Origin: Pseudodesulfovibrio piezophilus C1TLV30
Lineage (GTDB): Bacteria; Desulfobacterota; Desulfovibrionia; Desulfovibrionales; Desulfovibrionaceae
Direction: 5' to 3'
DNA length: 32,000 nt
Assembly: GCF_000341895.1 (NCBI RefSeq)
Contig: NC_020409.1
Location: 660,001 to 692,000 of the forward strand
In this document: one piece after another, positions 1-14,925 of the stretch
Numbering within the stretch: position 1 is the first letter of the stretch
Layout of the letters: every line of letters begins with the position of its first letter
Program-made: the position numbers and the translations under genes
The notes under the pieces: model-generated
What the model saw: the letters and a program-made list of their open reading frames with translations, nothing else
What the model was told of the DNA's origin: nothing
Databases searched by the model: none

Positions 1-2354
1 AGTTTTACGTCACCTATGTTGCGAATTCGGGGAGCAAAACGAAATCCGAGCAAATGGCAAAGAGCAAACACATGGTCCGTAAAACCTGCGGTGTCAGTGT
101 AGTGTTCTTCAATATTGAGATTGCTTTCATGGTAAAGCAAGCCGTCCAGGACATAGGTTGCATCGCGTGCTGTTGCGTTGATGAGCTGGCTGTGAAATGG
201 GGTGTATTGATCCGAGATGTGGGTGTAGAAAATCACACCGGGATCTCGCCCATATCGGGCATTTACATCTCCGAGGCCTCGACCAACACTGCCAAGAGGA
301 AAGTGCTGCCCGTCTGAAGACGAGGTGGAGCCATCGCCCCACTGTCCTGCAAGTGGAATTATGTGGTGGTAATTGGTTATCTCAGCCAACCCTCTGGAAT
401 AGCATTCGCTTCTGACATACCAATCCGAAACCCAAGACAACTGTTTATACGAGGCCCCGGAACTAGCCTCTGCCATCCTTGTCAGTCCAAGATTAATCCC
501 ATCTGAGAGAATCACTGACAAAAGAGATTCCTTGTCTTGAGATGGTTGGCCAGTTCTCAAATGAGTGAATTGTTCGGTGAAACCTGTCCATTGATCTACT
601 TCAATGAGGAGATCGGTAATTTTAATGCGAGGAAGCTCTGCATATACGCGCCGGCTGAATTGCTTGGCTTCATCGGGAACAGAGTTACCCCTATATGGTT
701 GCATTGAAAGCCTACCATTCTTGAGACAAACCGTATCCAAATCATTGCTTCTGAGAAGCCTTTGGAATTCTTCCAACTGACTTTCAAGGAGTTCTTTCCG
801 CTCTGAGATGTATCTTGTGCAATCCGTTTCGACCGCTACAGGTATTTCACGAGACTCCTGAAGCTGACGAAAAGCGGAAGGGCCCATGAGGTATTCGTTG
901 AAATCTTCGAATTGACGGCTGCCTGGTACCCATACATCGCCAGAACGGAGTCGGTTACGGAGTTCGCTTAAAGCGCACAGTTCATAGTACCTACGGTTCA
1001 GGCCATCAGTTTCGAAAATAAATGGTTGCCAGCGTTTTGGGATAAATGAAGTAGGAACTTGGTCGGGCAATTTGCGTTTGCCCGTTTTGTTCATGTCACG
1101 GATGATATCAATAGCTGTAAGAACATCCCGTCCACCAGAGCTTGCACGGAAGTCAAAATGCTCCAACATGGTTGGAGCATACCGCCGAATCTGATTGAAA
1201 CTCGTGTCAACATAATGGAGATAATCGAACCGCTGAGGTTGAGACAGGTTTTCAGCAGCTTCAACCGTTGCACGAAAATCATCCCAGGACAGTTCAGCCT
1301 CGATTAGCTCCCAAGGGTCTAAATGCTCCTCACGCGCTTTGATTAAGGCTTGGCCAAGCTTTGAGAAAACGTTGACGGTTGTTTTGATGTTCTTTGCATC
1401 ATCTTGTAGCTGAGTAGCCTGTTTTCGTTGGCTACGCCGCATTAGGGAGCCAATGATGCGGTCATGCATGTTGACGACCTCATCCATTAAGGAGCGTTGA
1501 ATTTCAAGCAAGCATACGGTCATGATCGTATACCGTCTTTGTTCATTCAACATTCGCAGATTATGCACAGCAATTCGATTACCTTCTTGGGCAAGTTGCT
1601 TGCGGCGAATTGTCGGTACTGCGTCCAAGACCTCGGAAGGAAGACCAAGCAACCGGATAGCGGCCAACTTTTCCATTATCAAAATCACATTTATAGGAGA
1701 AGGACGGCCAGCAGGTTGACGAATCCATGAAAGTCTACTCTGTGATTTCTCGCCTCGTGGATTAAGCCAAAATTTAAGATCAGCCTGGTGCCTGTCGGAC
1801 AACAGGCCGGTCACTTCATTGTAGACTCTGCGATCTGCTTGGATCTTCACCTGGGCAACGAGGCGTTCCACAACTGTCAAAGCAGGATGCAGAATTTTGC
1901 GACGTCTCAATTCATTTAGGGTTGCACCTACAAGGAAAGTACTCTTTGGATTGTCTACAGCAATTGGCGTCAGCCAGCGCACCATCTCTTGATAGTGACT
2001 ATCTCCAAATCTTGAAAGCCGGAAAAACTCTATCAAGGTCTTAAAATGCTCTCTGCGCGTCTGGTCTCTGTCCGCGTAGCCACAGAAGACTTCCGACTCT
2101 TCTTCTATTTGCTCTGCAATGAATTCGACCAAGGAATCGGGAATTTCATCATCGGGTCGTAAGGCCCTTCCAGGGAATTTGATGAGACAGAGTTGTAAAG
2201 CAAATCCGAGCCGATTGCGTGGCCGTCTACATTTGGAAATAAGTGCAAGTTCGTCTTCGTCCAAAACGTAGTACCGTGTGAGTAAATCCGGAACGCTTGG
2301 TAAGACTTCAAAAACGGTTCTCTGGGAAGAGGAAAGGACTGTTCTGCGAGGCAT
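1..2354 (-). CDS. tnpA: Tn3-family DDE transposase TnpA, N-terminal ~784 codons; C-terminus lies beyond the left window edge
   Basis: Not in the ORF track because there is no stop inside the window. Hand translation from ATG at 2354 gives [65 protein letters not shown]. Near the edge it gives [34 protein letters not shown]. Both are hallmark Tn3/Tn21-type TnpA blocks. No fragment ORFs are reported in this minus frame, consistent with one uninterrupted reading frame. Confidence 0.9.
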   Translation of the reverse strand, partial: [784 protein letters not shown]

Positions 2355-2490
2355 TTGAACCCACTTGTATCTTTTCTAGAATCAATAACGTATTGTTAAC
2401 ATAGTTTGTGATACGGAATAAGGTACAGGATATCGTACCTACCTGAACTATATTGGACATGTAACTCAAACGAGGGTTTGTGAACAGCCT
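2355..2490. promoter_or_regulatory. res-type resolution site / divergent tnpA-tnpR promoter region
   Basis: 136-bp region between divergent tnpA and tnpR, where res lies in Tn3-type elements. It contains the dyad AGGTAC-N8-GTACCT (2421-2440), centred on an AT dinucleotide, and the palindrome TGTTAACA (2394-2401). Subsites I-III were not delimited. Confidence 0.55.
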
Positions 2491-3117
2491 ATGAAAATTG
2501 GTTACGCACGAGTGTCAAAAGCTGATGGCTCACAAAATTTAGATCTCCAACGAGATGCTTTGCTGAAGGCAGGAGTTCCTGCTAAGCGCATTTATGAAGA
2601 CATGGCTTCCGGCAAGAAAGGCAAACGTCCAGGTTTGGACGCTTGCCTAAAAGCTCTACGCCAAGGAGACATTCTGTTGATTTGGAAGCTTGATCGCCTA
2701 GGGCGAGATCTCAAGCACCTTGTATGCGTGGTGCAAGAACTTGCTGAGAAGGATATTGGCTTTAAAGTCCTCACAGGGCGTGGGGCAGATATCGACACAA
2801 CCTCTGCAAGTGGCAAGCTGATTTTTGGCATCTTCGCAGCCCTTGCCGAGTTCGAGCGTGAATTGATCAGAGAGCGAACCATGGCAGGGCTTGAAGCCGC
2901 CCGCGCTCGCGGTCGCAAGGGAGGACGGCGATTCGCTCTAAACAAGACCCAAGTACAAATGGCGCAAGCTGCAATGAAAAACAAGACAACTAGCGTGAGG
3001 AATCTCTGTAAAGAGCTTGGGGTAACACGGGTCACCCTTTATAGGTATGTAAGTCCAAGTGGTGCGTTAAGGGGGCATGGCATACAGGTTTTAAATCCAC
3101 ATGCCCCACATGCATAA
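2491..3117 (+). CDS. tnpR: Serine recombinase, Tn3-family resolvase TnpR
   Basis: 208 aa. N-terminal MKIGYARVSKADGSQNLDLQ is the catalytic-serine motif. It also has a GRKGGR hinge and a C-terminal HTH (VRNLCKELGVTRVTLYRY). Divergent from tnpA. Confidence 0.9.
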   Translation: MKIGYARVSKADGSQNLDLQRDALLKAGVPAKRIYEDMASGKKGKRPGLDACLKALRQGDILLIWKLDRLGRDLKHLVCVVQELAEKDIGFKVLTGRGADIDTTSASGKLIFGIFAALAEFERELIRERTMAGLEAARARGRKGGRRFALNKTQVQMAQAAMKNKTTSVRNLCKELGVTRVTLYRYVSPSGALRGHGIQVLNPHAPHA

Positions 3118-3144
3118 GTCGTCAACTTCATTTATTGCGATATC

Positions 3145-3408
3145 TTATTGTCTTGTCAGCACTTCCTTCATTCGTTGGTATTCATCCGCAGTGAGTTCTC
3201 CCTTTGCGAATTTTTCCTTGATGATGTTCAGGGAGTCATCTCTGTCCGGTCGTCCACCTTGTCGGGAGGTGAAGGCTTGAAAGAGTTTGGAGATGAGATA
3301 CACCGCAACCAATGCGAGAAGTATCATCCAAATGAATCCAAACATGCCGCCTCCCATGAACCAGCCGGGGCCACCGCCATTCAATATTCCAAAATTACAA
3401 CTCCACAT
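3145..3408 (-). CDS. Small SHOCT-domain membrane protein
   Basis: 87 aa with a Gly-rich N-terminus and one TM segment (IWMILLALVAVYLISKLF). The C-terminal KFAKGELTADEYQRMKEVL is a SHOCT-type motif. SD AAGGAGA lies 7 nt upstream of the ATG. It lies 70 nt downstream of the ZraP-like gene on the same strand. Confidence 0.7.
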   Translation of the reverse strand: MWSCNFGILNGGGPGWFMGGGMFGFIWMILLALVAVYLISKLFQAFTSRQGGRPDRDDSLNIIKEKFAKGELTADEYQRMKEVLTRQ

Positions 3409-3439
3409 GATTTAATCTCCTTATGAGCATGAGAGGTGA

Positions 3440-3457
3440 GGGGGAGTTTCCTCCCCC
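3440..3457 (-). promoter_or_regulatory. GC-rich intercistronic hairpin between the ZraP-like and SHOCT genes
   Basis: GGGGGAG-TTTC-CTCCCCC: perfect 7-bp stem with a 4-nt loop. No T-tract follows on the minus strand, so it is not a classical terminator. Confidence 0.4.
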
Positions 3458-3477
3458 ATCGAATTCGAGATTCAGAC

Positions 3478-3942
3478 CTACCAACGGGGGCAGTTGTAGC
3501 CGTATCCATTATCGTAGCCATTGTAACCCATCATACCGGGACCCATACCACGCCCCATCATGCCTCGGCCCATTCCGCGTCCCATCATGCCGGGACCCAT
3601 CATGCCATTGGTCGGGAGATTCTGAGCAGCAGCCTTTTCATTGAGGGTGGTGATGCCCTCATTGATCTGCTTTGTCAGGCTGCGGACCTTCTTTGCATCA
3701 GGATTAGGACTGGCCATGATAGCGGCCAGTTCAGCGCGGTCTGCATCAATCTCTGCCCTCAGCTTGGCGGTGGAGTTCAGGAAGTCCTGATACGCCTTGT
3801 TGTTGGTGTCGAAGGATTGTGCATTGTATCCATTGCCATTCCAACCTCCGCAGTTGCCGTATCCCCATGCCATTGCATCGGTTGCGACGAAAGCGAGACC
3901 AACAGCCATAACCAGTGCCAAAGCGATAATGTTCTTCTTCAT
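3478..3942 (-). CDS. zraP: ZraP/Spy/CpxP-family periplasmic stress protein with Gly/Met-rich tail
   Basis: The track ORF is 3478-3984. The signal peptide MKKNIIALALVMAVGLAFVATDAMA begins at ATG 3942, with SD AGGAGA 7 nt upstream. The central helical segment is AKLRAEIDADRAELAAIMASPNPDAKKVRSLTKQINE. The C-terminal tail is GMMGPGMMGRGMGRGMMGRGMGPGMMG. It is divergent from a sigma-54 HK/RR pair, as in E. coli zraP-zraSR. Confidence 0.72.
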   Translation of the reverse strand: MKKNIIALALVMAVGLAFVATDAMAWGYGNCGGWNGNGYNAQSFDTNNKAYQDFLNSTAKLRAEIDADRAELAAIMASPNPDAKKVRSLTKQINEGITTLNEKAAAQNLPTNGMMGPGMMGRGMGRGMMGRGMGPGMMGYNGYDNGYGYNCPRW

Positions 3943-3991
3943 GATAATTTCTCCTATTGAGTGTTTTGTGAACAAGCTTTGCAATGACTAA

Positions 3992-4007
3992 GGCAAGACT
4001 GATGCCA
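3992..4007 (-). promoter_or_regulatory. Sigma-54 (-24/-12) promoter for the ZraP-like operon
   Basis: The minus strand reads TGGCAT-CAGTC-TTGCC. This matches TGGCAC-N5-TTGCW with the correct GG-N10-GC spacing. It lies about 50 nt upstream of the ATG at 3942, and a sigma-54 activator is encoded next door. Confidence 0.65.
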
Positions 4008-4187
4008 AAGAATGAACAAACTCTACAAGTCGCACTTAATATTGGAGAAAAGTATTTTCCAGCGGAATCCGCCGCGTGATCTGGATTGAGAAGGTAGGCG
4101 TGAGTGCTTAAAAAGTGTACACATGAGGCATGCAGAGTGTCTAAATTTTAGCCAGGCTGTCTCGATCTGAAAAAGGAAAGCCGAATA

Positions 4188-6029
4188 ATGAAGAAAAGAA
4201 TCAACAATTTTTTGGGAAATATGTCGCCTTGGGCTGTTATCGGGATGAGCCTTATCCTTGTAATCGTGGTGCTCGTTTTGGCATTCATGAATTACAATCG
4301 CGAAAAACAATATATGGGACGGGTGCTCAGTGAGAAAGGCTCGGCCTTGATCAAAGCCTTTGAAGCAGGAACACGCACTGGAATGATGGGCATGCTCGGT
4401 GAGGGACCCAACCTGCAAGTGTTGATGCAAGAAATCGCGACCCAACCCGACATCCTCTACATTGCCGTGGTAGACTCCTCCGGAGAAATTCTGGCGCATA
4501 GTAATGAAGTTGAAATCGGTCAGCAGTTTATCTCCGAAAAGGATTTGACCGAGTTGGCTGTCACCAAGGATTCTCAGTGGCGTGTCGTAGATGAACCCGA
4601 AGGCACAAAGTCTTTCGAGGTGTTCAAGCGATTCCTTCCTGCTTTGGCACAGCGCACTCAGTCTGGCCTGCCTGCAGCAATGCAGCAAAGAAGAAGCCAG
4701 ATGATGCAGCGTATGATGGGCAGACAGTCAGGAGGCATGTCCGATGATTGGTGCCAACCGGGCTGGATGAGTGGACTTAAACAGGACAGGATATTGGACC
4801 CAGCCGAACGACCTGCCATATTTATTGGTATGGACGTAGCTCCGTTCGAAGAGGCCATTGCCGAAGACGTTTCATTAACATTGACTATGTCAGGTATCCT
4901 GCTGCTCTTGGGCCTTGGTGGCGTGGTGTCTTTGTTCTGGATGCAAAGCCACACACGGTCCAAGAAGCTTTTGCAGGACTCTCAAGCGTTGACCGCAGAG
5001 ATGGTAGCGAACATCCCAGAAGGTCTGGTTGTATGCGATCCTGATGGACGAATCACCTATGCAAACGACATTGCCCTTGCTCTGTTGGCACGTGATTATG
5101 ATGATATCACACGGATTGTGGGACAACAGGCCAAAACCCTCTTGCCCGATGAACTCTGGGTGCTTCGCTCCTCAGTAAATACAGAGCAGCAGGTAGTTGA
5201 GAAAGAAATGGAGCTTGCGTTGAATGACGGACATAAGTTGCCTATAGCGGCGGTTGTAACTGATATCATCACCGAAGAGGGAGTCAATGTTGGCCAGTTA
5301 TTTATGGTTCGCGACCTGAGTCAGGTCAAAGAACTCCAAGAAGAGGTTCGCAAAGCCGATAGAATGGCAGCTATTGGTCATCTTGCCGCAGGTGTTGCTC
5401 ATGAGGTGCGCAACCCTCTGAGTTCCATCAAGGGCTATGCAACATACTTCGGCTCCCTTTTTGATGAAGGCAGCGACAATCGAAAGGCAGCAGAGGTCAT
5501 GACCTCGGAAGTTGATCGACTGAACCGAGTCATATCTGAACTCCTTGAAATGGCCCGTCCTGCTGACGTCAAACTGCGCGATACGGATGTCTCAACGCTT
5601 CTTGAAAGCTCTCTGCGCTTGGTTAAACAGGAGGCCGAAAGTGCGGGTGTGTCCGTGTCCTTGGAGACCTCCAAAGACATTGGAGATGTCATCCTCGACC
5701 CGGATCGGATGACGCAAGCCATGATCAACCTTTACGTCAATGCCATTCAGGCCATGCCGGATGGAGGCACGCTTGCAGTCGATGCCAACAGGCATGGAGC
5801 TTTCTTGCAGTTGACGGTTTCAGATACAGGCGCAGGGCTTTCTGATGCTGATGTGTCGCGCATATTTGACCCGTACTTCACCACCAAACAGACCGGAACA
5901 GGGTTGGGCCTTGCCATCGTGAGCAAGATTGTCGAAGCCCATTCCGGCGAAATCAAAGTTGAATATACCGGGCCAAATGGAACAGCTTTTACCATTCTCA
6001 TTCCGATAGAATCAAAAGGAACGGCGTAA
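4188..6029 (+). CDS. zraS: Membrane sensor histidine kinase, ZraS/HydH-like
   Basis: 613 aa. Two TM segments bracket a ~200-aa periplasmic domain, followed by a PAS-like region. H-box HEVRNPLSSIKG; ATPase boxes NLYVNAIQAM, DTGAGL and GTGLGLAI. Confidence 0.85.
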   Translation: MKKRINNFLGNMSPWAVIGMSLILVIVVLVLAFMNYNREKQYMGRVLSEKGSALIKAFEAGTRTGMMGMLGEGPNLQVLMQEIATQPDILYIAVVDSSGEILAHSNEVEIGQQFISEKDLTELAVTKDSQWRVVDEPEGTKSFEVFKRFLPALAQRTQSGLPAAMQQRRSQMMQRMMGRQSGGMSDDWCQPGWMSGLKQDRILDPAERPAIFIGMDVAPFEEAIAEDVSLTLTMSGILLLLGLGGVVSLFWMQSHTRSKKLLQDSQALTAEMVANIPEGLVVCDPDGRITYANDIALALLARDYDDITRIVGQQAKTLLPDELWVLRSSVNTEQQVVEKEMELALNDGHKLPIAAVVTDIITEEGVNVGQLFMVRDLSQVKELQEEVRKADRMAAIGHLAAGVAHEVRNPLSSIKGYATYFGSLFDEGSDNRKAAEVMTSEVDRLNRVISELLEMARPADVKLRDTDVSTLLESSLRLVKQEAESAGVSVSLETSKDIGDVILDPDRMTQAMINLYVNAIQAMPDGGTLAVDANRHGAFLQLTVSDTGAGLSDADVSRIFDPYFTTKQTGTGLGLAIVSKIVEAHSGEIKVEYTGPNGTAFTILIPIESKGTA

Positions 6030-6031
6030 AT

Positions 6032-7402
6032 ATGAGTGCCAAGATTTTAGTTGTAGACGATGACAAAGCACACCTATCAATGCTTGAAACGATGCTTACG
6101 GGGTGGGGGTATGCTGTTGTGGGCGTGGAAGATGGGGCAGACGCCATTGAGAAGGTGAAGGAGGCTCCCTTTGACGCTGTTCTGATGGACGTCAGAATGG
6201 CAAGAATCGGTGGCATTGAAGCCCTGAGCCAGATCAAGGAATATAACCCGGCCATTCCGGTTGTGATCATGACCGCATACTCTTCCGTTGATACGGCTGT
6301 GGAGGCGATGAAGTTGGGGGCGTATGACTACCTGACCAAGCCCTTGAACTTTGATGAACTCAATATGACTTTGGAGCGTTCTCTGGACCACATGACGCTC
6401 ATCAAGGAAAACCAGTCCCTCAAAGAGAGAATATCGGAAGACTCAAGCCTGACGGACATTATCGGCAACAGCAAGCCCATGAACGAGCTTATCAGTATGG
6501 TTAAGACTGTCGCATCGACTGAGGCCACGATCTTGATCTCCGGCGAGAGTGGCACCGGGAAGGAACTGTTTGCCAAAGCGATCCACGCAAACAGCAACCG
6601 GAAGAAGGCATCGCTTGTGACTGTCAATTGCGCTGCCCTGACTGACACTCTCTTAGAATCAGAACTCTTCGGCCATGAAAAAGGTGCGTTCACTGGAGCA
6701 GACAAGAAAAGGGATGGCCGTTTCATGCAAGCCAACGGTGGTTCCATATTCTTGGATGAGGTTGGTGAAATACCGATGCCAATGCAGGCAAAGTTGCTCC
6801 GGGCAATTCAAGAGCGAGAAATCCAACGAGTCGGCAGTGACAAAGTCTTGAAGGTTGATGTCCGAATCATCGCAGCAACCAACAGAGACCTCTTGGTTGA
6901 AGTCGAAAAAGGGAATTTCCGAGAAGACCTGTATTACAGGCTGAACGTGGTGAACCTCTGGATTCCGTCTTTGAAGGAGCGTGGAGAGGATACACCACTG
7001 TTGGCTACATTTTTCTTGAAGCGTTTCTCCGAGTTCAACAGAAAGCAGTTGAAGGGATTTACCCCCATGGCAATGGATGTGCTCGTGAAATATGATTGGC
7101 CCGGAAATGTCCGTGAACTGGAAAACGCAGTGGAAAGAGCAGTCATTCTTTCCGCTGGTGAATACGTGTCTGAAAAGGATTTGCCTTCAGCACTTACGCA
7201 GCATTTCGAAAATGTTAGTGGCTCCAATGGAGGCCAGCATCACGTAGGCGGCAAGTCGCTGCAAGAGATCGAAAAGGTTGCCATCGAAGAAACGCTGACA
7301 CAGACGGAAGGCAATAAAAGCGAGGCGGCAAAGCTGCTGGGCATCACGCGCACGACGTTGGACAATAAGATCAAGAAGTATGAAATATTTATTAAGAAAT
7401 AA
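6032..7402 (+). CDS. zraR: Sigma-54-dependent response regulator (NtrC family), ZraR/HydG-like
   Basis: 456 aa. Receiver domain (ILVVDDD, DVRM); AAA+ activator core with GESGTGKE and the GAFTGA loop; C-terminal Fis-type HTH (AAKLLGITRTTLDNKIKKY). The start codon is 3 nt after the kinase stop. Confidence 0.9.
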   Translation: MSAKILVVDDDKAHLSMLETMLTGWGYAVVGVEDGADAIEKVKEAPFDAVLMDVRMARIGGIEALSQIKEYNPAIPVVIMTAYSSVDTAVEAMKLGAYDYLTKPLNFDELNMTLERSLDHMTLIKENQSLKERISEDSSLTDIIGNSKPMNELISMVKTVASTEATILISGESGTGKELFAKAIHANSNRKKASLVTVNCAALTDTLLESELFGHEKGAFTGADKKRDGRFMQANGGSIFLDEVGEIPMPMQAKLLRAIQEREIQRVGSDKVLKVDVRIIAATNRDLLVEVEKGNFREDLYYRLNVVNLWIPSLKERGEDTPLLATFFLKRFSEFNRKQLKGFTPMAMDVLVKYDWPGNVRELENAVERAVILSAGEYVSEKDLPSALTQHFENVSGSNGGQHHVGGKSLQEIEKVAIEETLTQTEGNKSEAAKLLGITRTTLDNKIKKYEIFIKK

Positions 7403-7491
7403 CGATCGCGTTTTTTTACTGTCTCGCAATTAGAAATTATTATTACAACAGTCAGACATTTAAGAGGAGGGGGAACCACTTGGGGCGCTTT

Positions 7492-7530
7492 CTAAGCGTG
7501 CGTTTTTTCCCTTTCTATGGAGTGTCCCCC
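7492..7530 (-). repeat. Terminal inverted repeat (right end) of the Tn3-family transposon
   Basis: The reverse strand reads GGGGGACACTCCATAGAAAGGGAAAAAACGCACGCTTAG. Outer GGGG and inner ACGCT(T)AG are the Tn3-family IR signature. From memory, the Tn501/Tn1721 IR is GGGGGAACCGCAGAATTCGGAAAAAATCGTACGCTAAG. With GGGGG outermost at 7530, the element lies to the left. Confidence 0.75.
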
Positions 7531-7541
7531 TGAAGACGACT

Positions 7542-7573
7542 AAACGGAGGCGGCTTTCAAGCCGCCTCCGTTT
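7542..7573. terminator. Strong symmetric hairpin (possible bidirectional terminator)
   Basis: AAACGGAGGCGGC-TTTCAA-GCCGCCTCCGTTT: perfect 13-bp stem with A/T-run ends. It starts 12 nt outside the transposon IR. Confidence 0.5.
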
Positions 7574-7583
7574 ATGTGCCCCT

Positions 7584-7620
7584 AAACAAAACGGCCCGAC
7601 ACTTCCCCAAGTGTCGGGCC
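7584..7620 (-). terminator. Rho-independent terminator of the island operon
   Basis: GGCCCGACACT-TCCCCA-AGTGTCGGGCC: perfect 11-bp stem. On the minus strand it is followed by GTTTTGTTT. It lies 30 nt downstream of the stop of the 195-aa gene. Confidence 0.7.
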
Positions 7621-7649
7621 ATTCAAGGAGAAAGGGGCAACGCTGAAAG

Positions 7650-8237
7650 TTACCACCCCATGAAATTGCGAATTCTCAACTCTTCCTGTCGAGCTTGCTC
7701 ATGAGTGCTCATTGACAAAACCTGTTCAGGTTTGGCTCCAGCCCGGAAAAACAAATGCAAAGTTCCTTGGGAAAAATTAGAGCTACCAACAGAGTGGCTC
7801 CTTTCTCCTGCACCAACGTCACGCAAATCTGAAAGCCGGTACATCTCCCCGCCGAAATAGATAGCGTCGGCCCCACGATCAATCACCAGGTAGCCTCCAC
7901 GTCGATACTTAGCCGGCACGTAGAAATCGACCTGGATCTCACCGCACTCAATCGCTCGTTTAATTCTATTGTAGGTAGGCACAGCGAATATGTGACTGAA
8001 TGCAAATAAAAGCGTGATAATGCCCACCGGAACGAGAAACCAAAAGGCTATAAGAGACCAAAAGGCAGCAATATCATTCATGCCGAGTGCAGCAGACACG
8101 ATCAGTAGAGTAACAACAACTCCTAGCCCTTTTAAATCCCTGACCACAGGGTTTAGGCCAATGATATCCTTCAGCTGATCCTTGACAGAATTACCCCCTT
8201 CTTGACTGAAGGGAATACTGTTCGTGCTAAAATTCAT
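7650..8237 (-). CDS. Hypothetical two-TM membrane protein (candidate entry-exclusion-type protein by position only)
   Basis: 195 aa. SD GGAGG upstream of the ATG. Two adjacent hydrophobic helices (VVVTLLIVSAALGM and AFWSLIAFWFLVPVGIITLLFAF) are followed by a ~110-aa soluble domain. I recognised no family motif. Confidence 0.6.
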   Translation of the reverse strand: MNFSTNSIPFSQEGGNSVKDQLKDIIGLNPVVRDLKGLGVVVTLLIVSAALGMNDIAAFWSLIAFWFLVPVGIITLLFAFSHIFAVPTYNRIKRAIECGEIQVDFYVPAKYRRGGYLVIDRGADAIYFGGEMYRLSDLRDVGAGERSHSVGSSNFSQGTLHLFFRAGAKPEQVLSMSTHEQARQEELRIRNFMGW

Positions 8238-8273
8238 ATGGCCTCCATTTCAGAATTGATTTCGAACTCTCAA

Positions 8274-8294
8274 ATACGTATAAAGTATACGTAT
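8274..8294. promoter_or_regulatory. Operator-like palindrome upstream of the 195-aa gene
   Basis: ATACGTATA-AAG-TATACGTAT: perfect 9-bp arms. It lies 37-57 nt upstream of the ATG at 8237 and 35 nt downstream of the stop of the 761-aa gene. Confidence 0.35.
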
Positions 8295-8328
8295 GATTGT
8301 TAAAAAAATCAATTTCATTCTATGAGTC

Positions 8329-10602
8329 TCAATCTCGGTCAAGCAAATTCGAGCCAGCCCCTCCCGTCCCTTCAACCACTTCTGACACCTCTCCAGGCCT
8401 ATTGGGGTTATATCCAGAGCTTCCTCCAGAGGATTCACCACCTCCCTTCTTACCTTGGTTATCACCTCTCTGAGGCTTGCTACTAGGCTTAGGGGAACTA
8501 TGCGTCACATTCCCCACACCTCCCATAATTATTTGCCTCATAGAATCAGCATGTCCTGCGAGGCCCATTGTAGAAGCCTGATGACCTATCCAACTCATAA
8601 CTTTACGCGGCAGGTGAGAATAGCCTTGGGAGCAAAGGAAAGAAAACATATAGACGAAAAGTACACTCATGATAATACACATGAAGAAACTAGTTAAAAT
8701 GCCTGTATGGGATGAAACCGAACTAATATCTGCATTCGAATAACTGTAATAAAATGCTTCAAATATTCTAGCGACAATCCAGCCCATCACTCTCATGATC
8801 ATAAATATAATTATAAAACCAGCGACATAGAGAGGTGGTTTAAAAAGAATCTCAAGGAATTGGTAGTATCCCTGACTACCCATTTCGCCTGCAAGGCCGT
8901 CTGCTTGAGTACTCCATGCATGGGCAGCCACCCAAAAAGGTGCGGCTACCATCACTTCTACGACAAGCAACAGAAATCCAACCATAGCAATACACCAATA
9001 CAACATAGGCATAAGAGGTATTACATAGGCAAATATAATTCCGATTGTGTACAGTCCATCAGTAATTTTAACCACCGATTCGGCTATGTACTTTGCCCCT
9101 TCTATACCGGCTCCAGCAGCTCCTTCAAGCTGTCCACCTGTGAAGACACCAACAACTTTCCCAAACAAACTCTCGGTAAAGCCCTCCCCGTAACCTGAGG
9201 CCATGCGCAATCCCAGCCCTGCACTCCAAAGCATGGCACTTGCATCCATTATTCGATGTCCAAATTGCGCGACTACGAGCGTAGGATCTTCATTTTCAAA
9301 GCGATTCAACAGATCTTGGAGGAAAAAACGCCCAGAAAAAGCATATAACGCATCTTCAACCATGCTAGACACATCTCCAGCTAGCATAGCTTGCTTGATG
9401 GACGTACCTACTTGTGATGGATCGGGTTGCGCATTAAATTTCGCATCGCCTACGGATAAGGCTATTCCCAGACCACCAAAAAGAAAATCTTCGGCTTGTC
9501 GGCTAACAGCCTTGGTATCCATTCGGCTCAAGTTAACCGGGCTAGCAACTATATCTCGTGCTTCCCTAGAAAGCTGAGACATCATCAACGGCCATGCGCC
9601 AGCTGCCATCCAGCCAAGTTCTTTAGTCTTGCCAACAAACTTCTGAGAATCTTGTGTGATCTGATATTGAGGGTAGTATGACGCAAAGTTTTGAATGACC
9701 GGCATGACGGAACTTTGATACGCATTAACAGCTGAAATCAGCCAATTGGAATCAGTTTGCTCTACACCGTATACGATTCTGGAGGCAGCCGGGAAAATCA
9801 CATTATTCATAGCTATGATGCCGTTCACTTTCGCCAACATCATAGGGTCTTTGACATCACCAGGGATTTCGATAGTGCCGAGATCCTCTGAATCTAGACC
9901 ACGCCCTGGAGGAACCGCGAATTTAAAAATCCACTTTGGCCTGTCGTTTGAAAACAAGCTGAAGTCATTGGACTCAAGGGTTGAACTATGGGCACTGGTG
10001 GAAAACGGTAAAAAGCCTACCCACACCGGAGAAATTGGCTGGGAACCTCGTTTCAAAAATTCCCTATTCTCATCAATGGACTCTTTGCTAATGTAATTCT
10101 GAACCAAGCCTGCCTGCATCAAAACACGCGCGATATTCTTGGCCTCCTCTTGCATCTGTGGAGGCATTTCAGCCGTGACTGCAGCAAAATTGGATTTAGC
10201 CAAATGATCCATGGAAAAGTAATAGATGCTATTTGCCCAGGTGCATGCCCAACCGAGGCATACAAGAATTCCAGCTTGAAAAAGGGAAATCCCCCCCGAA
10301 AGCATAGGAGTCGTCATGGTCATTCCAAACATGCAACGGATCGGCCACCACACACCATTGAAACGCCTACCTCCGACCGTGCCCTCCTGGGCAGTTCCAC
10401 CCAGAGACATAACAAAGGTCCATATCGACCAACCAACAACCGCCGCCATGAGCAGCGTGTTGATCTCGGAGAGAATTTTGAAAAAGGGGGTGTTGACCGA
10501 GGCGTGCTCTGTAATCGCCCACCAGTTCTCTCCAAATATCTTCGAGAATGCGATCGCGGACATGTCGGTTGGGGAAAGGTCAGGAGAGATAGGTATGGCC
10601 AT
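8329..10602 (-). CDS. Polytopic membrane protein, DotA/TraY-family-like (type IVB secretion / I-type conjugation)
   Basis: The track ORF starts at TTG 10614; ATG 10602 (MAIPISPDLSP) is the likelier start. The N-terminal block SPTDMSAIAFSKIFG...TAQEGTVGGRRFNGVWWPIRCMFGMTMTTP parallels, from memory, the conserved DotA N-terminus PPPTDLSVVFLGNLFG...TAHEGQMLGQKWSSIWVPVRSTIGLALLIP. Topology is an N-terminal TM pair, a ~350-aa extracytoplasmic region and a C-terminal TM bundle. Size is close to IncI TraY. Confidence 0.55.
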   Translation of the reverse strand: MAIPISPDLSPTDMSAIAFSKIFGENWWAITEHASVNTPFFKILSEINTLLMAAVVGWSIWTFVMSLGGTAQEGTVGGRRFNGVWWPIRCMFGMTMTTPMLSGGISLFQAGILVCLGWACTWANSIYYFSMDHLAKSNFAAVTAEMPPQMQEEAKNIARVLMQAGLVQNYISKESIDENREFLKRGSQPISPVWVGFLPFSTSAHSSTLESNDFSLFSNDRPKWIFKFAVPPGRGLDSEDLGTIEIPGDVKDPMMLAKVNGIIAMNNVIFPAASRIVYGVEQTDSNWLISAVNAYQSSVMPVIQNFASYYPQYQITQDSQKFVGKTKELGWMAAGAWPLMMSQLSREARDIVASPVNLSRMDTKAVSRQAEDFLFGGLGIALSVGDAKFNAQPDPSQVGTSIKQAMLAGDVSSMVEDALYAFSGRFFLQDLLNRFENEDPTLVVAQFGHRIMDASAMLWSAGLGLRMASGYGEGFTESLFGKVVGVFTGGQLEGAAGAGIEGAKYIAESVVKITDGLYTIGIIFAYVIPLMPMLYWCIAMVGFLLLVVEVMVAAPFWVAAHAWSTQADGLAGEMGSQGYYQFLEILFKPPLYVAGFIIIFMIMRVMGWIVARIFEAFYYSYSNADISSVSSHTGILTSFFMCIIMSVLFVYMFSFLCSQGYSHLPRKVMSWIGHQASTMGLAGHADSMRQIIMGGVGNVTHSSPKPSSKPQRGDNQGKKGGGESSGGSSGYNPNRPGEVSEVVEGTGGAGSNLLDRD

Positions 10603-10603
10603 A

Positions 10604-11464
10604 CTATTCACCAAGCTCCTTCATCGTCTTTACAACCATGCTTCTAGCTACATCAGTATCAAAACTTAAGCCGCCTATTGTAATCATTGGGGTACTCGTT
10701 GCGTCTAAGAAATGAATGAAGTCTTCCCCCCGCCCCTCAGAAATCAACTTTTCAATCACTGCTCGATGCTGACTTGAGGAGCTTCCCCTCTCTCCTTGAG
10801 CCACTTTCTCGGCCTCCTTCTCAAGTAAATCCAAATTCAATTTTCCCTGTTCGCCAAGAAGCACCATTTTTGCTTTATATGCATCGGCATCTTTTTTGAT
10901 TACCGAACATATATCAATCCACCTCAAGACCTCAGAAGAAAGACAACCACTACTGCCTTTTCTCTTTTTTGTTCTTGTTCTCTTTTGGGGGTTCTCTTCA
11001 AAGAGGTACTGATTCTCTTTGGGTGACATCTTGTCACCGTTGGAGGGGTGACTTTTTGTCGCTCCTAGGGGTGACTTTTTGTCATCCCTAGGGCGACTTT
11101 TTGTCACCCTGTCAGACTCTTGCTTTGTCCGAGTCAAAGCTGAATCAAAAATTGGATGCCAAAGGAAATAATAACGATTGGTTGTCTGCAGACGACTTTT
11201 CTTTCTGAAGCAACGCTCAACTTCAATGAACTTTTTTTCAATCAACTCATTGAGACAGCGTTGTACGGTTCGTCCGCTACAGCCGAGCCCTTCTGCAATG
11301 GTATCAACACCAGGAAAACAATCACCGGTTTCACCTGCATGTTGTGCTAACTTCCCCCAAACAAGTTTAGATGAAAGCTGTAACCCATCGAAACTCGCTA
11401 CAATATCAGGAATAAATAACCCCACAAAAAGCTTGTAAGGCAAAAAGCGCACACCGGGTTGCAT
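10604..11464 (-). CDS. Winged-helix/HTH (HTH_36-like) protein, putative replication initiator of the element
   Basis: 286 aa. The N-terminal LSSKLVWGKLAQHAGETGDCFPGVDTIAEGLGCSGRTVQRCLNELIEKKFIE is the pattern seen in phage/plasmid replication-organiser HTH domains. A basic low-complexity linker is encoded by the iteron-like repeats. The start is 4 nt after the alpA stop. Confidence 0.55.
   Translation of the reverse strand: MQPGVRFLPYKLFVGLFIPDIVASFDGLQLSSKLVWGKLAQHAGETGDCFPGVDTIAEGLGCSGRTVQRCLNELIEKKFIEVERCFRKKSRLQTTNRYYFLWHPIFDSALTRTKQESDRVTKSRPRDDKKSPLGATKSHPSNGDKMSPKENQYLFEENPQKRTRTKKRKGSSGCLSSEVLRWIDICSVIKKDADAYKAKMVLLGEQGKLNLDLLEKEAEKVAQGERGSSSSQHRAVIEKLISEGRGEDFIHFLDATSTPMITIGGLSFDTDVARSMVVKTMKELGE
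11021..11108. repeat. Four phased iteron-like direct repeats (candidate ori) inside the rep-like gene
   Basis: GGGTGACATCTTGTCACC (11021), GGGGTGACTTTTTGTCGC (11045), GGGGTGACTTTTTGTCAT (11068) and GGGCGACTTTTTGTCACC (11091). The period is 22-25 bp. Each unit has the internal dyad GGTGAC/GTCACC. An A/T-rich homopurine tract (about 10950-11000) lies alongside. Confidence 0.6.
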
Positions 11465-11468
11465 AACT

Positions 11469-11672
11469 TTAGCTGGCTGCCGTTTCAGATAGGGAGTCTA
11501 TCAACTCAAGGATATCCTCAACACGCCAAGCCCTTGTTCTTTTCGTCAACTGCACAGGTTTTGGATATTTTCCAGACTTAACCCCACGCAACCAAGTACT
11601 GCGACTGAGGGGAATAACGGCAAGGACTTGAGGCAGGCGAACAAAGCCCACTTGCGGAAAAGGTTGTTTCAT
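11469..11672 (-). CDS. alpA: AlpA-family transcriptional regulator / excisionase-like HTH protein
   Basis: The track ORF starts at 11684 (MEEHM). ATG 11672 has SD GGAGGA upstream. The sequence FVRLPQVLAVIPLSRSTWLRGVKSGKYPKPVQLTKRTRAWRVEDILELI matches the AlpA/MerR-like excisionase pattern. Confidence 0.8.
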   Translation of the reverse strand: MKQPFPQVGFVRLPQVLAVIPLSRSTWLRGVKSGKYPKPVQLTKRTRAWRVEDILELIDSLSETAAS

Positions 11673-11691
11673 ATGTTCCTCCATAGATTAT

Positions 11692-11709
11692 GGCATTCAC
11701 ATGAATGCC
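11692..11709. promoter_or_regulatory. Palindrome immediately upstream of alpA
   Basis: GGCATTCA-CA-TGAATGCC: perfect 8-bp arms, 8-25 nt upstream of ATG 11684. No T-tract follows on the minus strand. Confidence 0.3.
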
Positions 11710-11795
11710 TTTACTCTTGGTGAAACCTTATGGAACAAAATCGATTATTAGTAACATTACAACTACCTCTATTATGAGGTGGTTAAAATGTAGAA

Positions 11796-12563
11796 TTATA
11801 ACTTGAGGTTATTTATAACAAGAGCCCCCAAAGTAGACTCGGCAAAAGGGTTACCAGTAAGACCAAGGGGTTTTTTAGTGTAATCAAGAAACAGTTTAGC
11901 AAACGTTAAAAATGGCCCACTGAACCCTGCGCCATCTGAACGTTTAGCACCACGGCCTTCTCCTCCAGCCTTATGATAATACTTCTGAAGCCATTTCAAG
12001 CAACGTTCAATTGCAAAATTTTCAGGACGCCCAGAAGGATATGGCAAGCTTCTCTCATCCATGATTTTTTTCCTACAAAGAGCAAGATAGTCGCTGACAT
12101 TTTTCCCATCTAGGGCGATTTCTCCGACTTCATCGTCGAATAATTTACATTCTTTGACAACCAACCGAGGAAAACCATCCCCTTCACCCCTATCTACAAA
12201 ACAATTCACAGATGGACGTACATGCTCGTACAGATACAACTTAATTGGATCATATTCATCTTCGCCTAAGGTTCCCGGGGAATCCCACTCGAGAAAAGAC
12301 TCAAGTAATCTACATGCTTTCTCAACATGTTTGAGCAACTCTTTTCTTTCGTCAGCTAAAGGCCTGTCCACACAACCTCTCAGCTGACAAACATATCCCG
12401 CGAGTGCCCTTTTTATACCTTCACGAATGTCTTCGTTTAGCTTTAGGCCTGTCTGTCCCTCTATTGCCTCAAAATTGATCTCAGGAAGGACGTCTAGATT
12501 AACACCGCTCCAAGACTCCCCTTTCCGACCAACAAAAGTATTTAATTTCGACCTTTCGCTCAT
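11796..12563 (-). CDS. Hypothetical protein, ~255 aa, translationally coupled to the integrase gene
   Basis: The track start GTG 12569 overlaps the int stop (GTGA). ATG 12563 has SD AAGGTGGGG inside the int 3' end. The protein is acidic and soluble-looking, and I recognised no motif. Confidence 0.6.
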   Translation of the reverse strand: MSERSKLNTFVGRKGESWSGVNLDVLPEINFEAIEGQTGLKLNEDIREGIKRALAGYVCQLRGCVDRPLADERKELLKHVEKACRLLESFLEWDSPGTLGEDEYDPIKLYLYEHVRPSVNCFVDRGEGDGFPRLVVKECKLFDDEVGEIALDGKNVSDYLALCRKKIMDERSLPYPSGRPENFAIERCLKWLQKYYHKAGGEGRGAKRSDGAGFSGPFLTFAKLFLDYTKKPLGLTGNPFAESTLGALVINNLKL

Positions 12564-12565
12564 AC

Positions 12566-13786
12566 TCACCCCACCTTCTGAGAAAACAATGGAACAACCT
12601 TCCCGCCAGCCTTCAAACTATCCAAATAGTCTGCCCAAGCTTGCATCATTAGTTTACGCTCCGGCAGATGCTCAGCGTAATTGTAGCTCGCCCTCACCTT
12701 GTCTTTAGGCGTGTGGGCCAACTGCCGCTCAATGGCATCCTTATGCCAGCCATGCTCATTTAAAAGTGTTGAAGCCATAGACCTGAAGCCATGCCCTGTC
12801 ATTTCGGTTTTGTCGTATCCAATACGCCGAAGAGATACATTGATCGTATTTTCAGACATCGGGCGTGCCGACGTTCGCACACTTGGAAAGACATACCCAG
12901 AGGGGCCAGTAAGTGGATGAAGTTCTGTTAAGACCTCCACGGCCTGAGTGGACAGGGGGACAATATGGGGACTTCCTCCTTTCATTTTCTCCGCAGGTAT
13001 CCGCCACTCGCTCCCCTCCAAATCAACTTCACCCCATTCTGCGTTCCTGAGTTCTCCTGGACGCACAAAAACCAAGGGAGCGAACCGAAGAGCGCAATGC
13101 ACCACCAAAGTCCCTGAGAAGCCATCTACAGCCCTTAAGAGGGGGCCGATTTCCTTAGGGTCGGTTATCGAAGGATGATGTTTCACCTTCCTCGCAGGAG
13201 GGAGCGCACCCTTGATATCCGCAGCAGGATCTCGCTCAGCTCGTCCGGCAGCCACTGCATAGCGGAAGACCTGGGACATTATTTGACGAATACGCCGAGC
13301 TGTCTCTACGGCTCCTCGTTTCTCGCATCGTTGAACGACTCCAAGCATATCCTCAACGCCAAGCTCCGATATGGGCCTGTCTCCAATGAAGGGGAAGATG
13401 TTCTTCTTCATCCGTTCCATTGTGGTTTTCGCGTGGCGCTCACTCCACCCTGAGCCTACCTGTTTCCCGAACCATTCCCTTGCAATGGCTTCAAATGCCT
13501 CACTTGCACTTGCTTTCCTCTTGTCCTCCTTGCGCTTCCGAGAAGGATCATGACCTTGAGCAATGAGGGTTTTCAGGTCTCCCCGCTTAAGTCGTGCTTC
13601 TTGCAAACTGATGTAAGGATATGGCCCCAGAGACAGCATGGTCCGCTTGCCATTGATTTGGTAGCGAAATCGCCACCACTTACGCCCTTTCGGGTTAACG
13701 ACTAGAGATAGGCCTTCACCATCATTCAGGGTGAATTCTTTGGATTTCGGTTTGGCTGCTTTGATCTTGGCATCTGTCAGCGGCAT
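12566..13786 (-). CDS. int: Tyrosine recombinase, P4-type phage/island integrase
   Basis: 406 aa. The N-terminal MPLTDAKIKAAKPKSKEFTLNDGEGLSLVVNPKGRKWWRFRYQINGKRTMLSLGPYP is the arm-binding domain typical of P4-like integrases. The C-terminal catalytic region includes HGFRSMASTLL and ASYNYAEHL. SD AGGAGAA. It lies 180 nt from a tRNA 3' end. Confidence 0.92.
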   Translation of the reverse strand: MPLTDAKIKAAKPKSKEFTLNDGEGLSLVVNPKGRKWWRFRYQINGKRTMLSLGPYPYISLQEARLKRGDLKTLIAQGHDPSRKRKEDKRKASASEAFEAIAREWFGKQVGSGWSERHAKTTMERMKKNIFPFIGDRPISELGVEDMLGVVQRCEKRGAVETARRIRQIMSQVFRYAVAAGRAERDPAADIKGALPPARKVKHHPSITDPKEIGPLLRAVDGFSGTLVVHCALRFAPLVFVRPGELRNAEWGEVDLEGSEWRIPAEKMKGGSPHIVPLSTQAVEVLTELHPLTGPSGYVFPSVRTSARPMSENTINVSLRRIGYDKTEMTGHGFRSMASTLLNEHGWHKDAIERQLAHTPKDKVRASYNYAEHLPERKLMMQAWADYLDSLKAGGKVVPLFSQKVG

Positions 13787-13803
13787 GTAGTCTTCTCCTG
13801 AGA

Positions 13804-13860
13804 GTGGTATAATGAAAAATGGTATATTTCGATTTATACCATTTTTTGTACCTTTATACC
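13804..13860. repeat. Four TGGTATA/TATACCA heptamers (candidate arm-type recombinase or AlpA sites)
   Basis: TGGTATA at 13804-13810 and 13819-13825; TATACCA at 13834-13840 and 13854-13860. They lie between the int start and the tRNA 3' end. Confidence 0.4.
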
Positions 13861-13902
13861 AGCCATCTCAAGACACCCTATGACACCGCAAGGCACACAA
13901 AA

Positions 13903-13931
13903 AGAAACAAAAAAGCCCTCATTTTGAGGGC
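13903..13931 (-). terminator. Rho-independent terminator downstream of tRNA-Ser
   Basis: AGCCCTC-ATTTT-GAGGGCT hairpin, followed on the minus strand by TTTTTGTTTCTT. Confidence 0.55.
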
Positions 13932-13967
13932 TTATGACACTTTATGAACCAAAGTGATTTTATTCTA

Positions 13968-14059
13968 TGGCGGAGAGGGAGGGATTCGAACCCCCGGACG
14001 AGTTGCCCCGCCTCTGGTTTTCAAGACCAGCGCATTAAACCGAGCTCTGCCACCTCTCC
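13968..14059 (-). tRNA. tRNA-Ser (anticodon UGA), CCA encoded
   Basis: The minus strand reads GGAGAGGTGGCAGAGCTCGGTTTAATGCGCTGGTCTTGAAAACCAGAGGCGGGGCAACTCGTCCGGGGGTTCGAATCCCTCCCTCTCCGCCA. It has a 7-bp acceptor stem, anticodon stem CTGGT/ACCAG with loop CTTGAAA, a long variable arm (class II) and T-arm GGGGG-TTCGAAT-CCCTC. Length 92 nt. Confidence 0.9.
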
Positions 14060-14101
14060 GTGAACTGATTGTTATTTGTTACAATCGAATCCGGGAGAAA
14101 C

Positions 14102-14130
14102 TTTGTAGGAGTGACTCCAAGAATTGTCAA
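14102..14130 (-). promoter_or_regulatory. Sigma-70-like promoter for tRNA-Ser
   Basis: The minus strand reads TTGACA-17 nt-TACAAA, about 40 nt upstream of the mature tRNA 5' end. Confidence 0.35.
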
Positions 14131-14483
14131 GATGAAAACCATGTTAAATGCTTGGGGGTATAAGAATTGGGTTCTCAGAACTTCTTTTGAACAAAATAAC
14201 ACCTACTAAGAGTGAAGAGACACGCTATTGGGTCCTGAAAGTTCATAATTCTAGATGAATATGAACACATTCATCCATGATAAGAGCATGGACATAATTG
14301 TCTTAACAAAACCGATCTTAGTTGTTAGAGAATATTCCATTAAACATGTCAGCAGGTTCGAATCTAGGCGACCTCAAAAGGACTTGATCACGTCCTTTCT
14401 CGTAGCCCCCCCCTTTGACATGTTTCATGGCATATCGTAAGTGAAAAATGAGCAACTATTCATACAAACCGATTGGATAGAGA

Positions 14484-14921: not shown

Positions 14922-14925
14922 TCTA

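Follow-up and report, generated by a model that had tools for sequence, protein, structure and literature searches.

Positions 1-7529 of a 32,000-nucleotide stretch of Pseudodesulfovibrio piezophilus C1TLV30 DNA (RefSeq assembly GCF_000341895.1, contig NC_020409.1, positions 660,001 to 692,000; hereafter the window) make up the right-hand 7.5 kb of an 8,091-bp transposable element of the Tn3 family, the left end of which lies beyond the window. They hold most of a transposase gene (tnpA), a divergent resolvase gene (tnpR), four cargo genes and a terminal inverted repeat (Table 1). The original prediction made from this sequence had described a Tn3-family transposon with a sigma-54 stress circuit as its passenger, and all the parts that it described were found in the window. 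Comparison with copies of the element elsewhere makes it very probable that this is a real and recently mobile transposon of marine sulfate-reducing bacteria, and that it carries a self-regulated four-gene module resembling ZraPSR, captured from a chromosome of Desulfovibrionaceae type.

Table 1. Features of the transposon and of its right-hand surroundings in the window (TM, transmembrane helix).
Feature	Position	Strand	Basis or remark
tnpA, Tn3-family DDE transposase	2354 to 1, runs off the left edge	-	DUF4158 and DDE_Tnp_Tn3 (Pfam)
tnpA-tnpR intergenic region, presumed res and divergent promoters	2355-2490 (136 bp)		position as in Tn3-type elements
tnpR, serine resolvase, 208 aa	2491-3117	+	Pfam Resolvase (148 bits) and HTH_7; divergent from tnpA
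Cargo gene 2 of the effector operon, 87-aa membrane protein	3145-3408	-	one TM; C-terminal SHOCT, Pfam 29.5 bits (cut-off 27)
Cargo gene 1 of the effector operon, ZraP/Spy/CpxP-family periplasmic protein, 154 aa	3478-3942	-	signal peptide, helical hairpin, Met/Gly-rich tail, C-terminal CPRW
Putative sigma-54 (-24/-12) promoter of the zraP-like/SHOCT operon, TGGCAT-N5-TTGCC = TGGCATCAGTCTTGCC	4007-3992	-	cross-locus conservation
Two putative enhancer palindromes, 15 bp each, 33 bp apart: GGCTAAAATTTAGAC and GTACACTTTTTAAGC	4153-4139 and 4120-4106	-	conserved blocks in alignment A1
Sensor histidine kinase, 613 aa	4188-6029	+	TM, periplasmic sCache_3_2, TM, PAS, HisKA, HATPase_c (Pfam)
Sigma-54 response regulator, 456 aa	6032-7402	+	Response_reg, AAA+ Sigma54_activat, AAA_lid_14, Fis-type HTH (HTH_8) (Pfam)
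Right inverted repeat (IRR), 38 bp	7492-7529	-	reads inward GGGGACACTCCATAGAAAGGGAAAAAACGCACGCTTAG; identical beside different flanks
Right flanking pentamer CTGAA, expected target duplication of the window copy	7530-7534		register with the three copies showing both flanks
Open reading frame, 195 aa	right of the IRR		no family matches
DotA/TraY-family type IVB protein	8329-10614		TIGR04346, 227 bits
HTH_36/DnaD-like protein	10604-11464
P4-type integrase	12566-13786
tRNA-Ser(tga)	13968-14059

Transposition genes and cargo in the window

The window contains 784 of the 974 codons of tnpA, from the ATG at the N-terminal end, and this fragment covers the first 206 of the 389 positions of the DDE_Tnp_Tn3 domain. 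Over the shared 784 amino acids it is 100% identical to the full-length 974-aa open reading frame of a copy on a 262-kb Tara Oceans contig (locus L001), the product of which scores 1099 bits on the 'Tn3 family transposase' model NF033527 (cut-off 500). TnpR has the N-terminal motif YARVS, and the exact protein is encoded on 20 contigs in the public collection. The classic divergent order tnpA-res-tnpR had been proposed for this region; the two genes do diverge, over 136 bp, and res is presumed. The gap contains an imperfect palindrome, CGTAT-N17-ATACG (2389-2415), and an inverted repeat (2398-2406/2446-2454).

The four cargo genes form two divergent pairs, with a 245-bp gap between the zraP-like and kinase genes; the kinase and regulator reading frames are only 2 bp apart. 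Their gene-by-gene description in the original prediction proved correct by comparison with Pfam, NCBIfam and PDB. The top-ranked NCBIfam models for the kinase, the regulator and the periplasmic protein are ZraS, ZraR and ZraP, respectively, none of which passes its equivalog cut-off. The zraP-like reading frame is preceded by a good ribosome-binding site. The sole PDB relative of its product is Salmonella ZraP (3LAY), which aligns end to end (E = 1.2e-6); the Pfam model Metal_resist gives 23 bits, below its cut-off of 29.2. Proteins of this family combine a signal peptide and a Gly/aromatic segment in the N-terminal part with a conserved helical core (…DRAEL-AIMAG-NPD-KK-R-L…), a tail of low complexity and a C-terminal Cys-x(1-2)-Trp. 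In the window allele the tail consists of GMMGRGMG repeats, encoded by a tandem repeat with a period of 27/15 nt (3526-3606). Most of the resident chromosomal modules nearest to that of the window pair a SHOCT gene with the zraP-like gene, as does a second transposon lineage described below (L108).

Between the zraP-like and SHOCT genes lies a perfect 7-bp GC-rich hairpin, GGGGGAG-GAAA-CTCCCCC, without a T-run (3440-3457, minus strand), which may act as an intercistronic stabiliser or attenuator. RNA folding revealed no significant structure in the zraP-SHOCT spacer (z = -0.34) or at the SHOCT-tnpR junction (z = -0.95).

Copies at other sites and origin of the cargo

Public assemblies were searched for exact matches to the TnpR and regulator proteins, which yielded 13 loci, and the left end of the element was read from copies identical or nearly identical to that of the window, not from the window copy. 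The Tara Oceans contig contains a full copy at 6907-14997 (8,091 bp) with both the left inverted repeat (IRL) and the IRR. The IRR is identical in all loci that reach the right end (L001-L004, L007 and L091-L093). Position 7530, which had been counted as the last base of a 39-bp repeat (7492-7530), varies among the nine copies compared and is thus part of the flank, so that the inverted repeat is 38 bp long. The IRL, GGGGGCACTCCATAGAGCGGACAAAGTTGCACGTTAAG, was seen in L001, L005, L006, L008, L009 and L012, and lies 33 bp past the tnpA stop codon in L001, L003, L005, L006, L008 and L009. Both repeats start with GGGG and end with TAAG/TTAG, and they match at 28 of their 38 positions. A search from the IRR that tolerated up to 8 substitutions returned no left repeat, the two differing at 10 of 38 positions; the IRL was recognised by direct reading of the tnpA-distal ends. 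In the register of L001, the IRL of the window copy would start about 604 bp to the left of position 1, in agreement with the 0.6-0.8 kb that had been estimated to be absent.

Perfect 5-bp target duplications enclose everything from tnpA through the cargo in three independent insertions: TAGCA is present on both sides of the L001 element, TACAC at the left end of L009 and the right end of L092 (one sequencing run), and TGAAA at the two ends represented by L008 and L093 (one sample of the Joint Genome Institute, JGI). This register shifts the duplication expected for the window copy from TGAAG (7531-7535), the earlier candidate, to the CTGAA listed in Table 1. The absence of a matching left repeat and of a target duplication had been named in advance as evidence against the original prediction; such a repeat and such duplications are present in other copies.

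A terminator-like hairpin followed by a T-run (GCGCTT-TCT-AAGCGT, 7485-7509) overlaps the inner end of the IRR, and transcription of the kinase-regulator operon may end inside the terminal repeat. This is a single, statistically undistinctive match. A pattern scan for terminators and sigma-70 promoters gave counts near the shuffled expectation and provides a hint only.

As had been proposed as a check, we looked for the cassette in other genomic contexts. It occurs beside at least eight different flanks (the window, L001, L002, L005, L006, L008, L012 and L094). The window copy is 100% identical in DNA, over all shared sequence compared in 250-bp bins, to L006 (in GCA_000375485.1), L008/L093 and L009/L092, which indicates that the spread was recent. 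Inverted repeats, target duplications and multiple sites thus document mobility at the level of sequence. GCA_000375485.1 holds two copies, L005 and L006, a situation that is compatible with replicative transposition through a cointegrate, with target immunity, and is no proof of it. Megablast of window positions 1-7600 against the plasmids of PLSDB gave no match; the element is therefore not a known plasmid-borne transposon. Its TnpA is less than 50% identical to anything among the 72,556 PLSDB records, and its relatives in JGI metagenomes fall into two groups, one of at least 93% and one of at most 57% identity, a gap that marks an isolated lineage. Every testable hallmark of the Tn3 family was found, the res subsites excepted; the transposon as such is ordinary and its transposition mechanism standard. 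As in elements of the Tn3 and gamma-delta/Tn1000 type, a transposase of about 1000 aa (DUF4158, DDE_Tnp_Tn3) and a divergent serine resolvase are separated by a short gap, the inverted repeats are 38 bp long, the target duplications 5 bp, and the passengers lie between tnpR and one inverted repeat. It differs from them in its isolated TnpA lineage and in its hosts, which are marine or anaerobic sulfate reducers.

Resident versions of the module were sought by a kinase scan of one genome per GTDB species, followed by tblastn with six window proteins. Leftward SHOCT and ZraP-like genes together with a rightward kinase-regulator pair often form a resident unit in the Desulfobacterota, where they occur without tnpA, tnpR or inverted repeats. 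The four-gene module resides in genomes of Desulfovibrio (kinase up to 76% and regulator 85-88% identical to those of the window), and in Desulfopila, Desulforhopalus, Desulfobulbaceae and Pseudodesulfovibrio (kinase 43% to 66% identical); in Desulfobacter loci (kinase 46-47%) the ZraP-like, kinase and regulator genes are present and a SHOCT gene was not detectable. The closest resident locus (L011) aligns with the window as one colinear block at 75% DNA identity, from 3155 to 7380, which corresponds to exactly the four genes. Since the homology is confined to these genes, the comparison indicates that the module was captured whole from such a locus.

The copies also differ from one another in ways that reveal exchange within the element. 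Between L001 and the window, the tnpA, tnpR, SHOCT and zraP-like genes differ by nothing but a 42-bp indel, and identity is 90-98% over the kinase and regulator genes. In L002/L091 the kinase and regulator genes are identical to those of the window whereas the SHOCT and zraP-like genes are about 80% identical, a contrast which shows that the cargo is mosaic. This copy (5380-10702) retains an intact tnpR, cargo and IRR, and of its tnpA only a 63-aa remnant is left, next to a gene for a methyl-accepting chemotaxis protein (a chemoreceptor) and an IS66 element; it is a decayed, immobilised copy. A more distant variant, represented by L012 and L095, is about 92% identical to the window in the transposition module and about 75% in the cargo. 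In L005, a tnpA of the L012 type (about 91%) is joined to a tnpR of the window type (100%); the changeover from one allele to the other lies in the tnpA-tnpR intergenic region, at window positions 2440 to 2445, and suggests that sequence was exchanged at or near res, or that homologous recombination took place in this region.

In another locus of the L012 type (L094, 3098-5333), the IRL directly adjoins, in the same reading frame, the sequence for residues 323-612 of a paralogous resident kinase (45% identical), which is followed by its sigma-54 regulator (67%). Here a resident system belonging to the same family was disrupted by the transposon; the contig stops within res. The L012 contig itself is labelled 'Planctomycetaceae bacterium UBA12365', which could be taken as spread between phyla. 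We rejected this reading: the contig, of 9,070 bp, consists of the transposon alone (IRL at 24-61, IRR at 9032-9069, with masked runs of N), its binning is unreliable, and the taxonomic label is probably a binning artefact.

Control region and predicted circuit

The -24/-12 element assigned to the zraP-like/SHOCT operon lies about 50 nt upstream of the zraP-like ATG. The pattern was matched 20 times in the 32 kb, with 18.6 matches expected, so that a single match is not above chance. The element is credible because it is conserved in position: 17 of 24 related loci have it at a near-constant distance from the kinase start, and in an alignment of 12 sequences (A1) the columns of TGGCA and TTGC show no variation, in contrast to the spacer and the surroundings. 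The promoter of the original prediction is thus present and backed by comparison across loci. The same alignment contains two conserved blocks, with the consensus sequences GTCTAATnTTTAGAC and GTCTAATTTTTAAGC, some 100-150 bp upstream of the -24/-12 element; for the window sites the distance is about 100 bp. The blocks have a 5-N5-5 geometry with half-sites GKCTA/TAGAC, and are putative enhancers (upstream activator sequences).

This layout can be compared with two characterised systems. In the zinc-dependent envelope stress response of Salmonella, ZraR drives divergent sigma-54 promoters, one for zraP and one for zraSR (PMC4987338). In Desulfovibrio vulgaris Hildenborough, DNA-affinity-purified-chip (DAP-chip) and electrophoretic mobility shift assays placed sites of DVU3381 (ZraR), GTATA-N5-TATAC, at -225 and -193 relative to DVU3384, which codes for a zinc-resistance-associated protein and diverges from DVU3382 (zraS) (PMC3333781, Tables S4/S6/S7); the regulon of DVU3381 has been labelled 'envelope stress response' (PMC4641369). 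The D. vulgaris arrangement comprises 15-bp palindromes of the 5-N5-5 type: a pair spaced about 32 bp apart lies upstream of the effector gene, and a further one lies toward the kinase gene (PMC3333781). The geometry and spacing of the window palindromes, roughly three helical turns, agree with these validated sites, whereas the half-sites differ (GKCTA/TAGAC in the window, GTATA/TATAC for DVU3381). DVU3381/DVU3382/DVU3384 and the window module share the divergent layout, each in a sulfate reducer; the likeness is one of layout and sites, and the Nitratidesulfovibrio loci among those compared are only about 37-38% identical to the window in the kinase and 60% in the regulator. The D. vulgaris module is chromosomal and not reported to be mobile, unlike that of the window.

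With the ZraPSR system of Escherichia coli and Salmonella, the window module has in common an effector gene with a sigma-54 promoter that is divergent from a kinase-regulator operon. The enterobacterial system is marked by induction through Zn/Pb and envelope stress, by repression of ZraS by ZraP, and by His-rich zinc sites in ZraP. It differs in having an additional, co-transcribed SHOCT gene, an effector devoid of His, and a kinase with an added PAS domain and a Cache-type sensor (Pfam) relative to ZraS; the kinase gene, unlike Salmonella zraSR, is not preceded by a -24/-12 element. On these comparisons the cargo resembles ZraPSR in its predicted working, is not its equivalog, and in design is nearest to the DVU3381-3384 module of Desulfovibrio.

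By homology with the enterobacterial ZraPSR and with DVU3381-3384, the Cache/PAS kinase would sense a periplasmic signal, either metal or envelope damage, and phosphorylate the sigma-54 activator. The activator would bind the two palindromes and turn on the divergent operon, leading to production of a secreted Met-rich ZraP-like protein, acting as a chaperone or in metal binding, and of the small SHOCT membrane protein. A negative feedback from the ZraP-like protein to the kinase is probable. The host would have to contribute RpoN only. A full circuit of sensor, activator, promoter and effector can thus move as one cassette of a replicative transposon among sulfate reducers, and in the window it has reached an integrated island with conjugation-type genes.

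Several observations weigh against this account of the element and its cargo. The IRL and the left target duplication of the window copy itself are beyond the window edge, and three res subsites were not identified within the 136-bp gap between tnpA and tnpR. The kinase scores 477.8 bits on the NCBIfam model ZraS (NF007688; cut-off 479), in two stretches of which the best covers only the catalytic half; the regulator scores 581.9 bits on ZraR (NF007689; cut-off 760), and the periplasmic protein 39 bits on ZraP (NF008584; cut-off 200). None of the 24 related loci has a -24/-12 element before the kinase gene. Finally, the window allele of the ZraP-like protein is doubtful as a zinc binder in the manner of E. 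coli: its lack of His disfavours zinc sites of that type, and its Met-rich tail points instead to Cu(I)/Ag(I) or to a role that is non-metal or chaperone-only.

A second lineage, alternative explanations and known systems

Among 80 metagenomic relatives of tnpA we found a second, independent and hitherto undescribed Tn3-family element with a module of this kind (L108; JGI contig Ga0302253_1001775, positions 127-9765). It has 38-bp inverted repeats (GGGGTCACCGCACC…ACGCTAAG) and a target duplication GAGTA, and is inserted in an ISL3-type transposase gene. Relative to the window its TnpA is 43%, its TnpR 35%, its kinase 43% and its regulator 61% identical. The cargo encodes a Metal_resist protein (61.8 bits, above the threshold), a small Met-rich secreted protein, a TM+SHOCT protein, a Cache/PAS kinase, a sigma-54 regulator and an HMA-CDF cation exporter; the small Met-rich protein and the exporter have no counterpart in the window element. 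The order of the effector operon also differs (SHOCT, small Met-rich protein, ZraP-like), whereas the layout of promoter and enhancers is the same, with TGGCAT-N5-TTGCT and two GAGTA-N5-TACnC palindromes 33 bp apart in the intergenic region, and so is the orientation of the module relative to tnpA. The presence of a homologous module in this lineage implies that Tn3-family elements became associated with such modules repeatedly or long ago, and a metal-related interpretation of the module gains strength from the CDF gene.

Could the four genes be mere neighbours, beside which tnpA and tnpR happened to land? The module is a common resident unit of Desulfobacterota chromosomes and the left end of the window copy is beyond the edge, as such an account would allow. 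It leaves unexplained why an IRR is found beyond the response-regulator gene, and why the junction between cargo and IRR is the same, base for base, beside five unrelated right flanks. Residence of the zra-like genes at this locus, which the original prediction had named as possible counter-evidence, is contradicted by these junctions. In addition, the 5-bp duplications of three copies enclose tnpA through the cargo, and no resident version exceeds about 76% identity in the kinase protein; these versions stand in other contexts and have no inverted repeat. We consider this explanation to have practically no chance of being right; it is excluded by the shared junctions, the enclosing duplications and the colinear L011 block. 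The four genes are cargo. Their function might be a methionine-based defence against copper and silver or against oxidants, in which the kinase senses Cu(I)/Ag(I) or oxidative damage and the Met-rich protein binds soft metals or serves as a sacrificial methionine sink. Periplasmic proteins for Cu(I)/Ag(I), CusF, PcoE and SilE among them, typically have Met-rich motifs. The window allele of the ZraP-like protein contains no His, 14 Met in GMMG repeats and two Cys, near both ends, and its tail changes fast: it is Met-only in the window, has Met and His (GHG/GMMGHG repeats) in L002, and is 14 repeat residues shorter in L001, owing to a 42-bp deletion in the Met-rich repeat. Such quickly changing Met/His tails suggest metal binding with a shifting specificity. 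No copper ATPase, multicopper oxidase or RND pump stands alongside the module, however; the exporter carried by L108 belongs to a family usually concerned with divalent cations (Zn, Cd, Co), and the nearest characterised systems answer zinc or envelope stress (PMC4987338). A copper, silver or oxidant defence is therefore possible and, on balance, the less likely assignment for the ZraPSR-like cargo.

The cargo might also serve mainly the transposon itself, if transcription induced by stress read through antisense tnpR into tnpA and thereby coupled stress to transposition. The zraP-SHOCT operon (3942 to 3145) and tnpA are both on the minus strand, the stop codons of the convergent SHOCT and tnpR genes are 27 bp apart, and between 2300 and 3400 neither a minus-strand terminator nor significant structure was predicted; L108 has the same relative orientation. 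This argument is purely topological, however, and its terminator scan was crude. About 800 nt of antisense tnpR and the TnpR-bound res region would have to be crossed, the common orientation is perhaps just inherited, and the module is equally conserved in chromosomes free of transposase. We thus regard service to the transposon as the main role of the cargo as very unlikely. A broader proposal, that Tn3-family elements and ZraPSR-like modules form a recurrent and possibly ancient partnership in anaerobes, with stress-coupled transposition through sigma-54 read-through into tnpA, is suggested by the homologous modules held in the same orientation by two lineages whose TnpA proteins are 43% identical; as formulated, it is unlikely. 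If it were true, envelope or metal stress would raise expression of the transposase and lower that of the resolvase, the promoter running antisense to tnpR and on into tnpA.

The original prediction had called such a cargo unusual. This stands for the type of cargo: we found no publication on Tn3-family elements with zraP, zraS, zraR or a sigma-54 cargo of the zraPSR type, and the type appears to be unreported. Cargo known from the Tn3 family is mostly mer, antibiotic-resistance, catabolic, toxin-antitoxin or effector genes. The claim does not hold for the principle, which has precedents. Tn1546, a Tn3-family element, carries the two-component envelope response vanRS with the vanHAX(YZ) genes that it controls, and Tn4651/Tn4653, of the same family, carry the xyl genes together with the sigma-54 activator XylR. 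The output of the window module, predicted to be a periplasmic chaperone or metal-binding protein and a SHOCT membrane protein, differs from the resistance enzymes of Tn1546 and from the catabolic pathway of Tn4651/Tn4653, and in neither of these are a kinase and a sigma-54 activator combined in one two-component pair as they are in the window. What is new is consequently the type of cargo and not the principle of a self-regulating circuit on a Tn3-family element; as the transposition mechanism is standard, the gain is incremental and not conceptual. The range of Tn3-family cargo is nevertheless extended past resistance, catabolic and virulence genes, by what would be a natural portable sigma-54 module. 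The variable Met/His tail of the effector and the CDF exporter of L108 suggest selection by metals in sulfidic or marine settings, which bears on the biology of metal tolerance, corrosion and bioremediation by sulfate reducers.

The DNA to the right of the transposon in the window (Table 1) provides the context of this particular copy. Two proteins encoded there, at 7650-8237 and 10604-11464, had no exact match on record. Past the tRNA-Ser gene there follow genes for Fur, glycerol kinase, GlpABC-like oxidoreductases, a DeoR regulator and an ABC transporter. As judged from its gene content, the transposon lies inside an island integrated at a chromosomal tRNA-Ser gene, and the island has at least one conjugation-type gene. 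Given this location, with its integrase and DotA/TraY genes, movement of the element both within and between cells is plausible.

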